DNA from: Eubacteriales bacterium
GTDB lineage: Bacteria > Bacillota > Clostridia > Oscillospirales > CAG-272
Direction: 5' to 3'
DNA length: 64,000 nucleotides
Assembly (NCBI GenBank): GCA_045128275.1
Contig: JBGVRH010000074.1
Span: 9,938 to 73,937, forward strand
In this document: piece after piece, positions 5,430-50,092 of the stretch
Layout of the letters: each line of letters starts with the position of its first letter
Numbering within the stretch: the stretch's first letter is position 1
The notes under the pieces: model-generated
Seen by the model: only the letters and a program-made list of their open reading frames with translations
Database searches by the model: none
Told to the model about the DNA's origin: nothing
Translations under genes and position numbers: made by a program

Positions 5430-6578
5430 TCAGTCCAAAAAGCCCTTCAGATGGCGGGCACGGCTGGGATGGCGGAGCTTACGGAGAGCCTTAGCCTCGA
5501 TCTGGCGGATACGCTCACGGGTGATATCGAACTCCTTACCCACCTCCTCGAGGGTGCGGGTGCGGCCGTCGTAGAGGCCGAAGCGGAGCTTGATGACGTG
5601 CTCCTCGCGGGGGGTCAGGGTGTGAAGCTCGCGCTCGATGACCTCGCGGAGGATGGTCTGGGAGGCGGCGTCGGCGGGAGCGGGGGTGTCCTCGTCCTGG
5701 ATGAAGTCGCCGAGGTGGGAGTCCTCCTCCTCACCGATGGGGGTCTCCAGGGAGACGGGATCCTGGGCGATCTTCATGATCTCGCGAACCTTCTCAGCGC
5801 TCATGCCCATCTTCTCACCGATCTCCTCGGCGGTAGCCTCGCGGCCGTACTCCTGGAGGAGCTGGCGGGAGTAGCGGGACACCTTGTGAATGGTCTCCAC
5901 CATGTGAACGGGGATACGGATGGTTCTGGCCTGATCCGCGATGGCGCGGGTGATGGCCTGGCGGATCCACCAGGTGGCGTAGGTGGAGAACTTGTAGCCC
6001 TTGGTGTAGTCGAACTTGTCCACGGCCTTCATCAGACCCAGGTTACCCTCCTGAATAAGATCAAGGAAGAACATGCCGCGGCCCACGTAGCGCTTGGCGA
6101 TGGAGACAACCAGACGGAGGTTAGCCTCCACCAACGCCTTCTTGGCCTCGATATCACCCTCGGCCATGCGCTCGGCCAGCTCATGCTCACGCTCGGAGGT
6201 GAGAAGCGGCACGCGACCGATCTCCTTCAGGTAGAGGCGGACAGGGTCATCCACCAGGCCCTCCTGCTCCAGGATGCGCTGCATATTCTCGCTGTTGCCG
6301 AACTGCTCCACCTCGTTCTCGATCTCGCTCATCTCGGAGCCGGACAGCTCGGGAAGCGGGATGCCGCTGTCCTCCAGGGACTCGTAGAGCTTGTCCAGGG
6401 AGTCAATATCGTAATCGTTCTCCTCCAGAACCGCGTCCAGATCGCTCTCGGAGAGCTTGCCCTTCTTGCCCTTGGCAACCAGATCGTTCATCTTGGCAGC
6501 CTTCTCGGCCTCAGCCTTGGCGGCGGCCTTGCTCATAGGCTCGTCGATCTCATCGACGTTCAGATTCTTCTTTTCCAT
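5430..6578 (-). CDS. rpoD: RNA polymerase primary sigma factor
   Basis: Region 2-4 motifs ([30 protein letters not shown]; [30 protein letters not shown]). RBS AAAGGAAG. Confidence 0.95.
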
Positions 6579-12384: not shown

Positions 12385-12970
12385 GGGAGGCCTCCTTGGG
12401 GGTATTTTCCAGGGTGGACACTTCCTCCGCGTCGGCCTGCAACCACGCATCCTCCCCGATGATCGCGGTGAGCTTGGCCTTCACAAAGCCGTACCGCATG
12501 GCGCAGGGCGGGGGGATCAGCCCCTTGTGGATCATGGTCTCGAACTCACAGAAGGTGACCCATTTGGAGTCCACGGTCTCCCACTCCTGCAGGGTGATGG
12601 GGGTGTCCTCCCCCGTCTCGGTGAGGCGGCAGAGGTAGCAATCCATGAAGGCGGAGGGCTCACGGAGGGTGCCGAGGAAGATCAGCTCCTCGGGCGGGCA
12701 GTTTATCCCCGTCTCCTCCAGAAGCTCACGGTGAGCCGAGGTCAGGCTGTCCTCACCGGTCACACCCGATCCGCCCGTGAACTCCCAGTAGTCGGGATAC
12801 ATCCCCTTGGTGGGGGCGCGGAGGGTCAGGAGCAGGCGGTTTTTGGCATCCACCGTGAAGACAGACACCACCGTATGGTAGGTGCCGCGGGGCATGGGGT
12901 ACTGCCGCCCGCGGGGGTGGGTGATGCCCAAGGGGTTGCGGTCTTTATCGAGTAGGTCCCAGAGTTCCAT
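12377..12970 (-). CDS. NUDIX hydrolase
   Basis: Trimmed to ATG 12970 after GGAGGTG. Nudix box GGSGVTGEDSLTSAHRELLEETG. Overlaps the yigZ-like start by 8 nt. Confidence 0.85.
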   Translation of the reverse strand: MELWDLLDKDRNPLGITHPRGRQYPMPRGTYHTVVSVFTVDAKNRLLLTLRAPTKGMYPDYWEFTGGSGVTGEDSLTSAHRELLEETGINCPPEELIFLGTLREPSAFMDCYLCRLTETGEDTPITLQEWETVDSKWVTFCEFETMIHKGLIPPPCAMRYGFVKAKLTAIIGEDAWLQADAEEVSTLENTPKEASHE

Positions 12971-12977
12971 GGGGATG

Positions 12978-13117
12978 TTCACCTCCGGTGAAATGATGTT
13001 GCCGCGATGCGGCAAATGATGTGCCTCTCCGAGGCAATGATGTTGCGGAGCATGCTCCTCAAATGATGTGCGCCTATCGGCGCAATGAGCGGAAGCCTTT
13101 TGCCTATGGCAAAAGGC
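12978..13117. repeat. array of unique GC-rich short-loop hairpins separated by constant (A)AATGATGT(T) spacers
   Basis: TTCACC-TCC-GGTGAA, GCCGC-GAT-GCGGC, GCCTC-TCC-GAGGC, GGAGCATGCTCC, GCGCC-TATC-GGCGC, GCCTTTTGCC-TAT-GGCAAAAGGC. Spacers at 12991, 13014, 13036 and 13061. Confidence 0.8.
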
Positions 13118-13127
13118 AATTATATTT

Positions 13128-14510
13128 TTACCAGGTATCTTCTTCTTTGACAGTCTTGGCATTGGGATCGTACTTCTTCATCATCCCGTACACCCGATCG
13201 TCCACGGTGGCCACCACGGTGACGGCCTCATAGCCGTAGTCCACCGACTCCACGGCGGCCTGCTCGGAGTACAGGCGGGACAATGCCCCCTGCTCGGCGT
13301 TGGGGATGATAAAGGTCACGCGGCGCTTGCCAATGCGTACAACGTCCTGAATGGCCTCAGCCAGGCGGTCAAGTCCCTGCCCCGTCTTGGCGGAGATATA
13401 CACGGCGGTACGGTTATCTTCATTGCGGCCGTCGAAGGACAGCCCCTTCTTGGCCACCACACCCATGAGGCTGACGGTGTCGCAGGACTCGCGGTCGCAC
13501 TTGTTGAAGACGTAGAGGGTAGGCTTACCGCCCGCGCCCAGCTCCTCCAGAAGTGTCTCGGTGACCTCCAGCTGGCTGGCGCACTCGGGATCGGAGGCAT
13601 CCAGCAGGAGCAGGACGATATCGGCGTAGACCGCCTCCTCCAGAGTGGAGCGGAAGGCGGAGACCAGATGGTGGGGGAGCTTGCGGATGAAGCCGACGGT
13701 GTCGGTCAAGAGGATGGTCTCGCCCCCGGGGAGGGTGAACTTTCTCGTGGTGGGGTCGAGGGTGGCGAAAAGCTTGTCCTCGGCCAGGATCCCCGCGCCC
13801 GTGAGGGCGTTGAGGAGGGTGGACTTACCCGCGTTGGTGTAGCCCACGATGGCCACGCGGGGGAGTCCCGAGCGGTCGCGGGAGGCGCGCATGGTGCGGC
13901 GGTTCTTCTCCACCACCTCCAGCTCGGCCTTGAGGGCATCGATGCGGCGCTTCATGTGACGGCGGTCGCTCTCCAGCTTGGACTCACCGGGGCCTCGGGT
14001 GCCGATACCGCCGCCCAGTCGGGACATCTCGGTACCGTGACCCGTGAGACGGGGCGCGCTGTACTGGAGCTGGGCCAGCTCGACCTGGAGTTTACCCTCG
14101 GAGGTCACGGCGTGGAGGGCGAAGATATCCAGGATGAGCATGGAGCGGTCGATGACGCGAAGCTCCATTTTACTGTCGCCGCCGCGGATATCATCCTCCA
14201 GGTTGCGGATCTGGACGGGGGTGAGGTCGCAGTCGAAGACCACCAGACCGATTGAGTGGTTGCGGCACAGCTCGGCCAGCTCCTGCACCTTGCCCGAGCC
14301 GATGAGGGTACGGGGGTCGGGGGTGGACTTGTTCTGCACCACGCGGGCGAAGACCTCGCCCCCGGCGGTGTCCAGCAGGCGGGCCAGCTCGTCAAGGCCG
14401 ATCTCGACCTCGGCGGCATCATCGTCTTTTGTCACAACTCCCACAAGGATGGCTTGAATGGGTGAGGTGCTCTCCTCACGGGTGGTGAAGGTGTTTTTAT
14501 TTTCGGACAT
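13128..14510 (-). CDS. hflX: GTPase HflX
   Basis: G1 motif GYTNAGKST, DTVGF, NKCD. HflX N-terminal domain. RBS AAGGAG. Confidence 0.95.
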   Translation of the reverse strand: MSENKNTFTTREESTSPIQAILVGVVTKDDDAAEVEIGLDELARLLDTAGGEVFARVVQNKSTPDPRTLIGSGKVQELAELCRNHSIGLVVFDCDLTPVQIRNLEDDIRGGDSKMELRVIDRSMLILDIFALHAVTSEGKLQVELAQLQYSAPRLTGHGTEMSRLGGGIGTRGPGESKLESDRRHMKRRIDALKAELEVVEKNRRTMRASRDRSGLPRVAIVGYTNAGKSTLLNALTGAGILAEDKLFATLDPTTRKFTLPGGETILLTDTVGFIRKLPHHLVSAFRSTLEEAVYADIVLLLLDASDPECASQLEVTETLLEELGAGGKPTLYVFNKCDRESCDTVSLMGVVAKKGLSFDGRNEDNRTAVYISAKTGQGLDRLAEAIQDVVRIGKRRVTFIIPNAEQGALSRLYSEQAAVESVDYGYEAVTVVATVDDRVYGMMKKYDPNAKTVKEEDTW

Positions 14511-14540
14511 GGGAATAATCTCCTTTCGGGAAAGGGATGG

Positions 14541-14600
14541 ACGATATGCCCTATGGGCGTGATATGCCCTGCGGGCGTGATATGCGCCCTAACGGCGCGT
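14541..14600. repeat. three tandem hairpin units with (A/G)(C/T)GATAT spacer
   Basis: ACGATAT-GCCC-TAT-GGGC, GTGATAT-GCCC-TGC-GGGC, GTGATAT-GCGCC-CTAAC-GGCGC. Confidence 0.7.
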
Positions 14601-14727
14601 GTTTTGGGGGGAGATTCATCTGACAAAAAGCAAAAGGACAGGCAGCGCCATGGCAAAACCTGTCCTTTTATGGGTTGATACTCTGCGCCCGCGGAACAGA
14701 TGGCTATCCCGTGAGCCCCAAGAAGAA

Positions 14728-14943
14728 TTACTTTCTGACAGCAGCCAGTCTCTTCTTGAACTTGTCCAGACGACCGCCTGCATCGACAAACTTCTGCTTG
14801 CCGGTGTAGAAGGGGTGGCACTTGGAGCAGATTTCAACGCGCATCTCGCTGCCCTTGGTGGAGCGAGAAACGACAGTCTCACCGCATGCGCACTTGATGA
14901 CGCACTCAACGTACTCGGGATGGATTCCGTTCTTCATTTTCAT
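14728..14943 (-). CDS. rpmE: 50S ribosomal protein L31 (Cys-containing, zinc-type)
   Basis: MKNGIHPEY...[13 protein letters not shown]. The start could instead be the second ATG at 14937. Confidence 0.95.
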
Positions 14944-25849: not shown

Positions 25850-25908
25850 TTAACAATAAAAAGAAAACAGCAGGTCGATACGATTGTATCCATCTACTGT
25901 TCTTTATT

Positions 25909-26035
25909 TGGTGCCGGTGGTGGGACTCTGAACCCCGCCGAGCGGAGCTCGGCAACAAGCTGCGCCGACAAAGAGGAATTGAGAACTTTGGCTGGCAGCT
26001 TGAAGTGGTTTCTTCACCCATCAACAACATCAAAA
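25909..26035. repeat. direct repeat X2 (tRNA-proximal island boundary)
   Basis: The first 20 nt are identical to the tRNA-Leu gene's 3' end (26068-87), then a 1-nt insertion, then GAACCC. The internal stems differ from X1 but keep their positions. Confidence 0.75.
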
Positions 26036-26068
26036 TACGGGGCACCCCTTTGGGGTACCCCGTATTTT
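26035..26068 (-). terminator. rho-independent terminator of tRNA-Leu (bidirectional)
   Basis: ATACGGGGcACCCC-TTT-GGGGTaCCCCGTAT flanked by A4 and T4. Confidence 0.75.
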
Positions 26069-26154
26069 GGTGCCGGTGGTGGGACTCGAACCCACACGAT
26101 GTCGCCATCAACGGATTTTGAGTCCGTCACGTCTGCCAATTCCATCACACCGGC
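26068..26154 (-). tRNA. tRNA-Leu (anticodon CAA), class II with long variable arm, encoded CCA
   Basis: Reverse complement folds as GCCGGTG/CACCGGC acceptor, AATTGGCAGA D-loop, ACGGA-CUCAAAA-UCCGU anticodon arm, GAUG-GCGA-CAUC variable arm, and GTGGG-TTCGAGT-CCCAC T-arm. Confidence 0.95.
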
Positions 26155-47331: not shown

Positions 47332-48705
47332 TCAGCCGATTTTTTCGAGAACGGCGGTGATCGCCTGCCCCAAGGGCTCCAGGGCGGCCTTGGCCTCGTC
47401 AAAGGTGTTCCCCGCCGCCCCCATCTCCACGGTCAGCACCCGTACGTCCCCCAGGTCGCTCACCATCCCGCCGCCGCTCTTGACCCGCACGGGGCGGCTC
47501 AGGGAGGGGTGGATCTCCCACAGCTCCTGCCGCAGGGCCAGTGCCACGGCGAGATCATGCCCCAGAGCGGCGGATCCCCGCCCCCCGCTGACCGACAGGC
47601 GGATCTGGGCGCAGGGAGCTTGCCCGCCTCTTCCGTCTGTGCGGAGGATGCCTCCCTCCGCCGTCAGCTCGGCGGAACGGCGCAGGTCTATGACCAGCCC
47701 GATATCAGGGTAGAGACGGCAGTAGTAGCGAATGGCGGCCTCGGTGCGGTCACGGAAATTGGCGGCGGATTCCTCGGGGGTAGTGGCCAAGCGGAGGTGG
47801 ATGACCGTGACGCCCAGCTCCCGCAGGCGGCGGGCCAGGGCAGAGCCGAGAGCCACCACCCCATCGGGGGCGTTGGGGGAAACGGTGAGAGCCAGGCCTC
47901 CCGTGGCGGGATCGTACCAGGCCGCGCCGTCGCCGTAGCCCTCGTAGGGATGGGTGTTGATCATCAGGACGGCGGGAGCTGCAGTCTTCCAGGGAGAATC
48001 GGTGGGGAGGGTGGCGGGAAGATCCGCTCCCGCGTTGTCGATATAGCCCGCACCGCGGTCGGGGCAGCTCAGGTCTTGGGAAACGATGGGGTAGCAACCG
48101 TCGGGGATGGGGATGGGCGGCTCGGTCTCGGGCAGGTCGGTGAGCGGCTCGGTCGCCTCGGAGGGAGGATCGGTCACGGTAGCGGGCGGATCGGTTACAT
48201 CAATGGGCGGCTCGCTCTCGCTTTCGGTAGCCGTCTGGGGGGCGGTGTCGGTTGGATCGGTAGGGACAGAATGGATCGTCTCGGTTTCAACCGTCAGGGT
48301 ATCGGTGGGATCCCCCTCGCTTTCGGGAGGAGAGGTCAGCTCCTCGGGGAGAGTATCGGTCTCGGGATCGGGATCGGCTATGTCCGTGGGCTCTTCAGCG
48401 GCGGTGTCGGTTTCGATGCCCCGCTCTGTTTCTGTGACGGGTTCCCATGGGAGAGAGAAGCCGCCGTGCAGACCTCCTCCGAGGCCCTGGGATCGCCTCC
48501 CGCCCATCCACAGTCCCAGGAGCGTCACCCCCACCGCTACCGCCGCCAATGCCACCGCCGCTCGGCGCGGGGGCGTCCACCGTATGGGCGGGAACAGATC
48601 GTCTAATAATATGTAGAGCTTTGACCGCCTCACGCGGGCGGAAGGGGGGCCCACGTTGGGAGCCCTGGCGGGGAGGTGGGGGCTACGGTCTTGTTGGGTA
48701 TTCAT
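47332..48705 (-). CDS. spoIIP: stage II sporulation protein P-like amidase
   Basis: Trimmed to ATG 48705 after AGGAGG. TM anchor, Thr/Pro/Glu/Asp-rich linker, C-terminal SpoIIP-like domain. Conserved gpr-spoIIP adjacency. Confidence 0.75.
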   Translation of the reverse strand: MNTQQDRSPHLPARAPNVGPPSARVRRSKLYILLDDLFPPIRWTPPRRAAVALAAVAVGVTLLGLWMGGRRSQGLGGGLHGGFSLPWEPVTETERGIETDTAAEEPTDIADPDPETDTLPEELTSPPESEGDPTDTLTVETETIHSVPTDPTDTAPQTATESESEPPIDVTDPPATVTDPPSEATEPLTDLPETEPPIPIPDGCYPIVSQDLSCPDRGAGYIDNAGADLPATLPTDSPWKTAAPAVLMINTHPYEGYGDGAAWYDPATGGLALTVSPNAPDGVVALGSALARRLRELGVTVIHLRLATTPEESAANFRDRTEAAIRYYCRLYPDIGLVIDLRRSAELTAEGGILRTDGRGGQAPCAQIRLSVSGGRGSAALGHDLAVALALRQELWEIHPSLSRPVRVKSGGGMVSDLGDVRVLTVEMGAAGNTFDEAKAALEPLGQAITAVLEKIG

Positions 48706-48789: not shown

Positions 48790-48975
48790 GGGCGAAGCCC
48801 GTCACGCCCGAAGGGCATCGTTCCTCTCCGTTGCGCCCAACGGGCGCACATCATTTGCCCCATCGGGGCAACATCATTTCACCGCGGGTCACCGCGGTGA
48901 ACATCATTGCGCCTGCGGTTTCGTCCGCGGCGCACATCGTTTGCGGTTGATCGGAACGATAAACCGCTCGCAATC
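48790..48975. repeat. second hairpin/AAATGATGT-spacer array, inverted relative to 12978-13117
   Basis: Plus strand shows ACATCATT spacers at 48848, 48871 and 48901 (ACATCGTT at 48934). Hairpins at 48790-800, 48806-16, 48832-48, 48856-70, 48878-901, 48909-33 and 48942-66. Confidence 0.8.
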
Positions 48976-49013: not shown

Positions 49014-49913
49014 TTAGATCTCCCCCACCCCAAAGGCCAGATCCAGCCCTCGCGCCAGCAAGCGGCAGGTCAGCTCCACCACCTCATCGCTGTCCTTGGG
49101 GGAGACGATGAAGCTCCGTCCCGTCTCCAGCACCTCCTCCAGCGCGGGAGAGATCCCGCCGTCCGTCATCCCCGCCCGCTCCAGGACGTCCCAGACCAGG
49201 GTGGAGGAGTCCACCACCGTAGGCACGCCCACCCCCAGGACGGGACAGCCCATGGCCGCGCGGTCGATGGCCAGACGGTGGTTGCCGATCCCCGCCCCGG
49301 GGGAGATGCCCCCGTCCGAGAGCTGGACGGTAGAGGACAGTCGCTCCACCCGTCTCGCCGCCAGGGCATCCACCGCCACAATGAGATGAGGCCTTACCAG
49401 CTCTACCGCGCATTTCACCAGCTCCCCCGACTCCATCCCCGTCTGTCCCAGCACCCCGGGGGAGATGGCGGCCAGCTCGCAGCAGCCCAGGGCGGTGAAC
49501 AGGCTCTCGTCATAGCCCTTCAGGTGGCGGGTCACGGTCATGCGGCGCACCGTTCCCGGGCCAATGGCATCGGGTGTCATGTGGGGATTCCCCAGGCCCG
49601 CTACCAGGATACGGCAGGCAGAGTCGGGCACCCTTCCCAGCAGAGCCTCGGCCATGCGCCGCAGCTCCCGCGAAAGAAGCTCGGCCAGGGCGGGCAGATC
49701 CCCCTCACCCCGCTCGGTGATCCGCCCCAGCGCCAACGTCACCGAGCGACCACCGTTCTCCTCCCGTCGGCGCGTGACGGTTACGGGGGACTGTCCCACC
49801 GAAACGGTCTCCTCCCGGATCTCGGCGGCGGGGGATGCCGACTCGCAGGCCAGGTCGGTGCGGACGCAGTTCTCGGCCAAAGAGGCACTTTTTTTCGGCT
49901 GATTCAGTTCCAT
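49014..49913 (-). CDS. gpr: GPR spore germination endopeptidase (peptidase A25)
   Basis: Trimmed to ATG 49913 after GGGAGGAG. RTDLACE..., ILVAGLGNPHMTPDAIGP, VDALAAR, ISPGAGIGN. Confidence 0.9.
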   Translation of the reverse strand: MELNQPKKSASLAENCVRTDLACESASPAAEIREETVSVGQSPVTVTRRREENGGRSVTLALGRITERGEGDLPALAELLSRELRRMAEALLGRVPDSACRILVAGLGNPHMTPDAIGPGTVRRMTVTRHLKGYDESLFTALGCCELAAISPGVLGQTGMESGELVKCAVELVRPHLIVAVDALAARRVERLSSTVQLSDGGISPGAGIGNHRLAIDRAAMGCPVLGVGVPTVVDSSTLVWDVLERAGMTDGGISPALEEVLETGRSFIVSPKDSDEVVELTCRLLARGLDLAFGVGEI

Positions 49914-50092
49914 TCTGCTCCTCCCGAACAGTATTTTCGGGGGGCGAGCCCCCTTTCGGGAGATAGTGTGCCTCACCCGCCAAAAGCCTATGCGCGAAAA
50001 GCAAAAACGCCCAACGCCGTGTACAAAATGCACAGTTTTCAGCCGTGGTTGTTGTGCAACCGTCCAAAACTGAAAAATATACTCATTTGCTT

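Follow-up and report, generated by a model that had tools for sequence, protein, structure and literature searches.

What kind of element is built of short GC-rich hairpins that all differ in sequence, joined by a few nucleotides that stay constant? The question is raised by the spacer between the genes for the HflX GTPase and a NUDIX hydrolase in the 64-kb stretch of DNA analysed here (the window; W in comparisons, where fetched comparison loci carry L-numbers). An earlier note on this DNA had described an array of GC hairpins with the constant 8-mer AATGATGT at 12978-13117, and had pointed to a second locus of the same family. We found that the array is real, and that AATGATGT arrays are a new linker variant of Gut-1 (RF01706), a known and uncharacterised motif, which is itself one linker type of a large intergenic hairpin-array family of gut Clostridia. 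The features of array 1 and the genes beside it are the following:

12978-13117, array 1: six hairpins, four exact AATGATGT linkers and one degenerate linker
12992-13069, + strand, core of array 1: four exact AATGATGT copies with three different GC hairpins between them
12978-12992, hairpin 1, read on the + strand as TTCACC-tcc-GGTGAA (TTCACCtccGGTGAA); the feature lies on the gene strand (-)
13000-13014, + strand, hairpin 2: TGCCGC-gat-GCGGCA (TGCCGCgatGCGGCA)
13023-13035, + strand, hairpin 3: GCCTC-tcc-GAGGC (GCCTCtccGAGGC)
13044-13061, + strand, hairpin 4: TGCGGAGCATGCTCCTCA, with one mismatch
13070-13083, + strand, hairpin 5: GCGCC-tatc-GGCGC (GCGCCtatcGGCGC)
13095-13117, hairpin 6: GCCTTTTGCC-tat-GGCAAAAGGC (GCCTTTTGCCtatGGCAAAAGGC), a 10-bp stem that closes the array
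12992-12999, 13015-13022, 13036-13043 and 13062-13069, + strand: the exact AATGATGT linkers
13084-13094, after hairpin 5: the degenerate linker, AATGAGCG, also given as AATGAGCGGAA
12377-12970, - strand: NUDIX hydrolase gene (Pfam), downstream of array 1
13128-14510, - strand: hflX GTPase gene (Pfam), upstream of array 1 and downstream of array 3

The exact linkers of array 1 follow one another at spacings of 23, 21 and 26 nt. The window contains eight copies of AATGATGT against 1.5 expected, a count that none of 100 shuffles reached, and seven of the eight fall inside array 1 or array 2; when one mismatch is tolerated, no enrichment is left (35 copies against 32 expected). The folding z-scores of array 1 were -5.16 for gene-sense RNA, -6.61 for gene-sense DNA and -3.41 for RNA of the + strand, and the gene-sense strand folds as six separate local hairpins. 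A chance origin of the arrays is ruled out by these shuffle tests of motif counts and folding. On the gene strand, hairpin 1 reads UUCACC-GGA-GGUGAA and includes the Shine-Dalgarno sequence of the NUDIX gene, GGAGGUG, 7 nt before the ATG at 12970. In a test for intrinsic terminators (a GC hairpin followed by a U-tract) the closing hairpin at 13095-13117 alone qualified, and on the + strand only (tail AATTATATTT), whereas no array unit did so. A promoter scan of the hflX-NUDIX spacer found no promoter-like site.

Two further arrays are present in the window, and all three are intergenic:

48833-48967 (with flanking hairpins from 48790), array 2, AATGATGT orientation on the - strand
48833-48847, 48856-48870, 48879-48900, 48909-48933 and 48943-48967: hairpins of array 2
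48848-48855, 48871-48878 and 48901-48908: linkers of array 2, exact ACATCATT on the + strand
48934-48941, + strand: fourth linker of array 2, ACATCGTT
48790-48816, + strand: two short hairpins beside array 2, GGGC-gaa-GCCC and GCCC-gaa-GGGC, with GAA loops and without the AATGATGT linker
14548-14598, + strand, array 3: GCCCtatGGGC GTGATAT GCCCtgcGGGC GTGATAT GCGCCctaaCGGCGC
47332-48705, - strand: SpoIIP gene (Pfam), flanking array 2
49014-50033, - strand: Gpr gene (Pfam), flanking array 2
14728-14943, - strand: L31 (rpmE) gene (Pfam)

Array 2 bears out the second locus of the family, at 48790-48967, although in inverted orientation: arrays 1 and 2 each lie between two minus-strand genes, yet their orientations are mutually opposite. 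They have in common a colinear two-unit block of ~45 nt (TGCCGCGATGCGGCA versus TGCCCCGATGGGGCA), one compensatory G-C to C-G swap apart. The two arrays are thus not independent of each other, and the statement that every stem is different, which holds within an array, fails between them. Array 2 has a folding z-score of -5.52, and a promoter scan of it found none. Array 3, which the earlier note had missed, was found by a linker-agnostic search for hairpin runs and has the rpmE terminator on one side and the ribosome-binding site of hflX on the other. The naming of the array 1 flanks as hflX and NUDIX was confirmed by Pfam, and the Pfam neighbours (HflX, NUDIX, SpoIIP, Gpr and L31) indicate a spore-forming bacterium of the Clostridium class; the G+C content of the window is ~58%.

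Gut-1 was described from human-gut sequences as probably a non-coding RNA and was rated, from covariation, 'RNA: Y, not cis-regulatory' (Weinberg et al. 2010, PMC2864571). Rfam places it in the class 'Gene; sRNA' (small RNA). Its consensus consists of three variable hairpins with CUUCG/UUC loops and GUGAAAU joints, and its published seed includes GUGAUAU members with a tRNA and a terminator before them and inverted ATATCAC units after them. A tRNA was the sole match in an Rfam scan of the window. The Gut-1 covariance model, whose gathering threshold is 50 bits, did not match arrays 1 and 2 even at E <= 10, while array 3 gave a sub-threshold match (28.3 bits, E = 0.006, at 14513-14588), as did L041 in a permissive Rfam scan (30.4 and 20.8 bits). 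As positive controls, L002, L018, L072, L078, L101, L121 and L126 scored above threshold, at 52-68 bits. The matches in L121 and L126 (66.8 bits), relatives with an HflX protein 92-94% identical to that of the window, are ATTTCAC arrays directly upstream of NUDIX; such a Gut-1 array stands at this site, in the same orientation as array 1, in L121, L126, L128, L130 and L132. It is this Gut-1 match at the orthologous site, together with the absence of a model match to arrays 1 and 2, that identifies the AATGATGT arrays as a linker variant of the Gut-1 motif.

The window arrays share with Gut-1 a run of at least three short hairpins, whose GC-rich stems vary and covary, and a constant A/U-rich linker. 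The wider family shares its gut Clostridia habitat and taxa and the arrangement of tRNA and terminator followed by an array, and AATGATGT arrays of other genomes have its UUC/CUUCG-type loops. They differ in the linker, which is GUGAAAU or GUGAUAU in Gut-1 (and GUGAUAU in array 3) but AAUGAUGU in arrays 1 and 2, and in the loops, typically UUC in Gut-1 and tcc, gat, tatc and tat in the window arrays. The Rfam model describes only a 77-nt, three-hairpin half, and misses the paired inverted layout, several of the linkers and the link to an IVP gene (see below). Gut-1, an orphan 'sRNA' in Rfam since 2010 that is known from gut metagenomes only, is one face of a larger family that has several interchangeable constant linkers and is mostly invisible to the current Rfam model.

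To delimit this family, one genome per species was scanned for three AATGATGT copies 10-30 nt apart, which gave at least 119 loci; the 120 sequences examined for hairpins were the fetched loci and the window. Hairpin-filled AATGATGT arrays were found in 85 of the 120, that is, in at least 84 loci and the window, and comprised at least 267 units with at least 161 distinct hairpins; the remaining pattern matches were unrelated tandem or coding repeats. The carriers are almost all metagenome-assembled genomes of gut or rumen Clostridia (among them Oscillospiraceae, Acutalibacteraceae, Ruminococcus, Faecousia, Anaerotruncus and Christensenellaceae). The earlier proposal of a lineage-specific family is thus not supported, the more so as a sibling linker type is Rfam's Gut-1. 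Non-Clostridial and giant-virus pattern matches were coding or AT-rich repeats and were removed by the filter. A phage origin was ruled out, as only 2 of 120 viral-contig pattern matches were true hairpin arrays, and so was a coding tandem repeat, as the arrays lie between genes and have units whose length is not divisible by 3.

A unit of the family consists of a constant A/T-rich linker of 6-8 nt and then a short, GC-rich, Watson-Crick hairpin of free sequence. Among the stem pairs of 185 distinct hairpins, 820 of 837 are Watson-Crick, 3 are G-T and 9 are A-C, and comparison of the sequences indicates that compensatory change preserves the stems. The terminators of these loci, taken as a control, have 381 Watson-Crick, 7 G-T and 2 A-C pairs. 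The loops of the 267 units among the matches listed, read on the AATGATGT strand, include TTC (90), TGC (23) and TAC (22); altogether 139 are TNC, which on the ACATCATT strand are GNA triloops closed by C-G. Other linkers in the same genomes read ATTTCAC, TATATCAY, CTTCAT and ATTTCAA on the GNA-loop strand, all without G, and the linkers of other arrays, as read in the AATGATGT sense, are GTGAAAT, GTGATAT and ATGAAG. The shared core of the linkers is (A/T)TCA on the ACATCATT strand and TGA(A/T) on the opposite strand. The start/stop overlap (NUGA) in the linkers is without statistical meaning.

Comparison with relatives whose flanking genes are 83-95% identical to the window in nucleotide sequence revealed that the arrays come and go at 85-95% nucleotide identity, and that the family behaves as a dispersed repeat turning over between species. 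The hflX-NUDIX junction overlaps (TAATG) in L124, L125, L127 and L133; in L120, the closest relative (~95% identity), the spacer is 41 nt, and L137 has a different spacer of 246 nt. In L126, L128, L130 and L132 the junction is occupied by a Peptidase_S51 gene, a terminator hairpin and an ATTTCAC array, and in L121 by the same gene and array without the terminator hairpin. The ATTTCAC array at this site is identical in the five relatives, indicating that arrays are stable over short timescales and replaced as blocks. Two hairpins are common to the window and L128, that of the terminator (GCCTTTTGCC..GGCAAAAGGC TTCC) and that of the Shine-Dalgarno sequence (CACC/AGGAGGTG; CACCGGAGGTG is its homologue in relatives), while all of the linkers and hairpins between these two differ. 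In L126 and L128 the Peptidase_S51 gene is followed by a homologue of the window hairpin at 13095-13117; the window therefore seems to have lost this gene, or the relatives to have gained it, at this hot spot. Array 3 is present in L121, where one hairpin is identical, one similar and one replaced, and is absent from L120, L124-126, L128, L130, L133 and L137. Conservation among related strains, which the earlier note had made a test of its reading, thus holds for array 3 in L121 and for the Gut-1 array at the NUDIX site in five relatives, but not in L120, L124, L125, L127 and L133, where the arrays are absent. Insertion boundaries or target-site duplications could not be defined from filled and empty sites, as the spacers are too diverged, and a metagenome scan anchored on the NUDIX start gave one match only. 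For annotation, the implication is that operon-internal arrays, such as that between hflX and NUDIX, may alter operon architecture between close relatives. An AATTCGG/AATGCGG tandem repeat was seen in the rpmE-hflX spacer of L120 (330-375), at the position of array 3.

In most loci the units form paired inverted halves: ~40 have forward and then reverse units (often 4+4), ~20 reverse and then forward, and ~30 a single orientation. The commonest element is a ~175-nt module with a mean column identity of 78% across 25 species. It starts with a tRNA gene, whose identity varies, an A-run, a terminator, a T-run and four forward units, continues through the centre GGCAAACATCGCATCATTGCG into four reverse units, and ends with a promoter of the sigma-70 type, which has its -35 box directly against the last linker. 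The gene behind this promoter, the IVP gene, encodes 105-120 amino acids with a match to the Pfam family 23S_rRNA_IVP (PF05635, 93.8 bits), and the closest solved structure to its product, an Avd-like four-helix bundle, is 2RLD. The PF05635 family resembles Avd, the accessory protein of diversity-generating retroelements (PMC10053308). A tblastn search placed the IVP gene beside arrays, at fixed distances of ~50 or ~106 nt, in at least 21 of the 84 fetched loci. The clade of the IVP protein tracks the linker type and array order:

Clade A: 74-100% identity to the L041 IVP; AATGATGT; forward then reverse; 49-54 nt from array end to gene start in most loci
Clade B: 54-58% identity to the L041 IVP; AATGATGT; reverse then forward; 105-106 nt
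Clade C: 46% identity to the L041 IVP; GTGAAAT (bona fide Gut-1 pairs); forward then reverse; 51 nt (L101)
IVP-array loci: L041, 2826-3400; L260, 865-2400; L090, 2053-2609

The two array halves of L090 enclose the IVP gene, and in L260 the IVP stop codon falls within an overlapping nucleotidyltransferase gene. A search that started from the protein confirmed the link between gene and arrays and recovered a homologue, P0159, with the same module behind tRNA-Gln, and a module identical to it was found after a different tRNA 3' end in another sample; past the P0159-type module come an overlapping nucleotidyltransferase gene, the terminator once more and a further array. Close IVP homologues numbered 7994 with E <= 1e-10 among the scored candidates, mostly on contigs of 0.5-1.5 kb, as would be expected of a multi-copy element that breaks assemblies. 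The best-conserved copies of the family are thus physically tied to tRNA terminators and an Avd-like protein, which provides testable hypotheses for two orphan families.

The arrays as a whole resemble the repetitive extragenic palindromes (REP) and bacterial interspersed mosaic elements (BIME) of Enterobacteria and Pseudomonas, which have REP-associated tyrosine transposases (RAYT) as partners. Both are short, multi-copy, extragenic palindromes in both orientations, form mosaic clusters with conserved linker motifs, lie at gene ends and within operons, and vary in presence between strains. Relative to co-directional flanking genes, array orientation is about even (8 versus 6 arrays in our own tally). 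Under a strict definition, 15% of arrays have a terminator within 70 nt against 2.7% of random placements, and 36 elements start directly after a terminator T-run; block duplication expands the arrays in L031 and L039. The likeness to REP/BIME elements that had been suggested therefore stands for intergenic, multi-copy, clustered occurrence in both orientations, but does not extend to formal membership: REP elements conserve the palindrome and a 5' GTAG, whereas here the palindromes vary (at least 161 distinct hairpins in 267 units), GTAG is lacking and the linker is constant. In addition, REP units alternate, whereas the units within an array are direct repeats, and no RAYT gene recurs beside the arrays; among 268 open reading frames (ORFs) flanking arrays no transposase family was recurrent, and the neighbours were diverse. 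The same lineage also has another repeat family, which bears the signature of classical REP elements, GTAG and then GGGGCG-variable-CGCCCC hairpins, in many cases as inverted pairs (L120:2500-2620, L121:3895-4010 and 6000-6110, and in L031).

What, then, do the arrays do? The roles suggested in the earlier note, in mRNA stabilisation, attenuation or protein binding, are plausible. Our leading explanation, which we hold tentatively and with slightly less than even confidence, is that they are REP/BIME-like DNA repeats that are co-transcribed with their neighbours, where they would act as barriers to decay and read-through, uncouple cistrons and sequester Shine-Dalgarno sequences, and that their linker is kept by a partner, possibly the IVP protein. 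The three window arrays would be 'orphan' copies of the family. Whole arrays would be copied as DNA into new intergenic sites, typically beside intrinsic terminators, and would then ride passively into transcripts, in which each unit would fold autonomously, like a bead on a string. The acting molecule would be an RNA or single-stranded DNA hairpin barrier between cistrons. Support comes from the strong local folding and compensatory change of the hairpins, the design shared with Gut-1, the REP-like distribution, the lack of a promoter-like site in the hflX-NUDIX spacer, which speaks for co-transcription, and the IVP gene as the source of a candidate partner. At hflX-NUDIX the array separates cistrons that overlap in array-free relatives, and the intercistronic RNA would carry five hairpins plus one that sequesters the Shine-Dalgarno sequence; array 1 most likely blocks exonucleases and read-through, and uncouples or damps the translation of NUDIX. 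A sequence-specific partner probably accounts for the retention of the constant linker, and the best candidate is the IVP protein, whose gene lies next to the 'master' copies. The comparisons thus show the anatomy of the arrays, their kinship in architecture, their dispersal and turnover, their preference for intergenic sites near terminators and the tie to IVP genes, whereas co-transcription, the barrier role and the part played by the linker are inferred.

Several observations weigh against this explanation. The barrier role is drawn by analogy from the REP elements of Escherichia coli, which conserve the palindrome sequence, whereas here the linker alone is conserved. The strictness of the 8-mer across genera and the conservation of the tRNA-linked element suggest a specific function beyond that of generic hairpins. 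Little transcription is to be expected of arrays of the tRNA type, given their place past a terminator and ahead of the next promoter, and tblastn found no IVP gene in the window. The strand that acts is also contested: the bias towards TNC loops points to the ACATCATT strand, to which the wobble pairs also lean (9 versus 3), and DNA energies prefer this strand in 74 versus 21 arrays, whereas RNA nearest-neighbour energies prefer the AATGATGT strand, which Rfam models, in 67 versus 28, and the 5'-AU...GU-3' stem extension of the Rfam model speaks for the latter. A choice of strand from wobble pairs was dropped, as these are too few (3 G-T versus 9 A-C) and control terminators are similar, and a choice from energies was dropped because the RNA and DNA parameters disagree.

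It is doubtful, in our view, that the arrays are instead discrete structured sRNA genes acting in trans, for example as a multivalent scaffold or sponge that offers single-stranded UGAU/UGAA linkers, clamped by hairpins, to an RNA-binding protein, much as repeated single-stranded motifs are placed between hairpins in CsrB/RsmZ-type sponges. Such a role would fit the covariation-based rating of Gut-1 and its Rfam class, the high conservation of the tRNA-type element across genera, the preference of RNA energies for the Rfam-modelled strand, and the terminator-like hairpin with a T-rich tail at the + strand end of array 1. On the other hand, the promoter scans of arrays 1 and 2 were negative, the arrays lie in operon spacers in either orientation and come and go among close relatives, and there are many copies per contig with differing linkers. 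Furthermore, G-U pairs are nearly absent, and the paired inverted halves mean that any one transcript holds both orientations.

A second possibility, which we also consider unlikely, is that the functional form is single-stranded DNA: the ACATCATT strand would form highly stable C-GNA-G mini-hairpins, and the linker would be the site of a strand-specific enzyme, HUH/RAYT-like or other, that copies selfish arrays. The frequency of GNA loops closed by C-G on this strand (139 of 267, against ~6% expected, with a further 37 GNNA loops) supports it, and GNA triloops of the d(GCGAAGC) type, studied by Hirao and Yoshizawa, are reportedly the most stable DNA mini-hairpins known. The preference of DNA energies for the same strand, the almost wholly Watson-Crick stems, the asymmetry of the units independent of gene orientation and the presence of REP-like hairpins in the same lineage are in line with this, although the control terminators are also nearly all Watson-Crick, which makes the wobble argument weak. 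The lack of a recurrent transposase or RAYT gene beside the arrays speaks against it, as does the lack of a definable target-site duplication or clean boundary between filled and empty sites, and since the hairpin sequences differ, a hairpin-specific HUH enzyme is unlikely.

The IVP gene offers a third possibility, and we think it improbable that the arrays are cis elements centred on it. Their inverted halves would form a branched stem like that of an intervening sequence, handled by IVP and RNase III, and orphans would be decayed or non-autonomous halves. The recurrence of the module with fixed spacing, the Avd-like nature of the protein and the L090 gene between the halves are consistent with this, and RNAalifold predicts a nested pairing of each forward linker with a reverse linker. 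However, the linker columns are invariant, and covariation therefore neither supports nor refutes the nested fold, which is energetically possible; for the window arrays it is impossible, because they have a single orientation, and they have no IVP gene nearby. Like the ORF-containing intervening sequences of 23S rRNA (PF05635), these loci combine a gene with inverted-repeat hairpin sequence near stable-RNA genes, and in L090 the gene sits between the inverted halves; they differ in that the arrays lie downstream of tRNA genes and not within 23S rRNA, that their inverted halves are arrays of mini-hairpins, and that the window arrays are without the gene. A related proposal, of similarly low probability to our mind, is that Gut-1-type arrays and Avd-like IVP genes are one system, in which the paired arrays are the substrate of IVP and the module seeds the orphan arrays. 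The module would lodge behind tRNA genes and intrinsic terminators with clade-specific linkers, and the substrate would be either RNA, processed in the manner of an intervening sequence, or single-stranded DNA that serves in copying. If true, this would be a REP/RAYT-like partnership with a non-HUH protein.

Finally, it is very improbable that a regulator or roadblock protein binds the constant 8-mers in duplex DNA, as it would an iteron or operator array, with the palindromes being incidental: the exact 8-mer is directly repeated every 18-26 bp and, in tRNA-type loci, the -35 box of the promoter that follows touches or overlaps the final linker, but this leaves unexplained that 98% of spacer positions pair and that loops are strand-biased, the spacing (hairpins of 10-16 nt) is out of phase with the helix, and arrays 1 and 3 lie inside an operon by ribosome-binding sites, not by promoters.

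Other candidates were rejected as well. CRISPR arrays also alternate constant and variable segments regularly, but their repeats measure 23-50 nt against a constant part of 8 nt here, where the variable parts are palindromes of 10-25 nt and homologous multi-unit blocks recur at other loci. CRISPR was thus ruled out, and the earlier picture of an 'inverse CRISPR' holds as a description only, as there is no unique-spacer logic and whole arrays, not units, are copied; no cas genes were noted among the few annotated flanking genes. Helical phasing or DNA curvature was set aside because unit length varies (18-24 nt), an integron attC site by inspection, as the 18-26-nt units fall far below attC length, and parS because the resemblance of hairpin 1 is superficial. 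For a box C/D (kink-turn) motif, AAUGAUGU fits six of the seven C-box positions (RUGAUGA) but has no CUGA D-box partner, and Rfam matches to small nucleolar RNAs were noise (9-17 bits). Literature searches for the 8-mer AATGATGT returned only primers and similar material, and those on the concept nothing past Weinberg 2010.

Two further observations concern the surroundings of array 3 and a tRNA gene elsewhere in the window. Past the rpmE stop, at ~14624-14727, there is a ~75-nt conserved sequence with a hairpin (..CCGACGGGATA..GTTCCGTnGGG..), possibly an L31-associated RNA element, which all of the relatives have; a strong terminator (AAAAGGACAGG..CCTGTCCTTTT) comes after it. On the - strand at 25900-26154, the 3' end of a tRNA gene (26071-26154) recurs as a second copy (GGGTTCAGAGTCCCACCACCGGCACCA) past the terminator of the gene, ~140 nt downstream, and this duplication looks like the scar of an element integrated at the tRNA.

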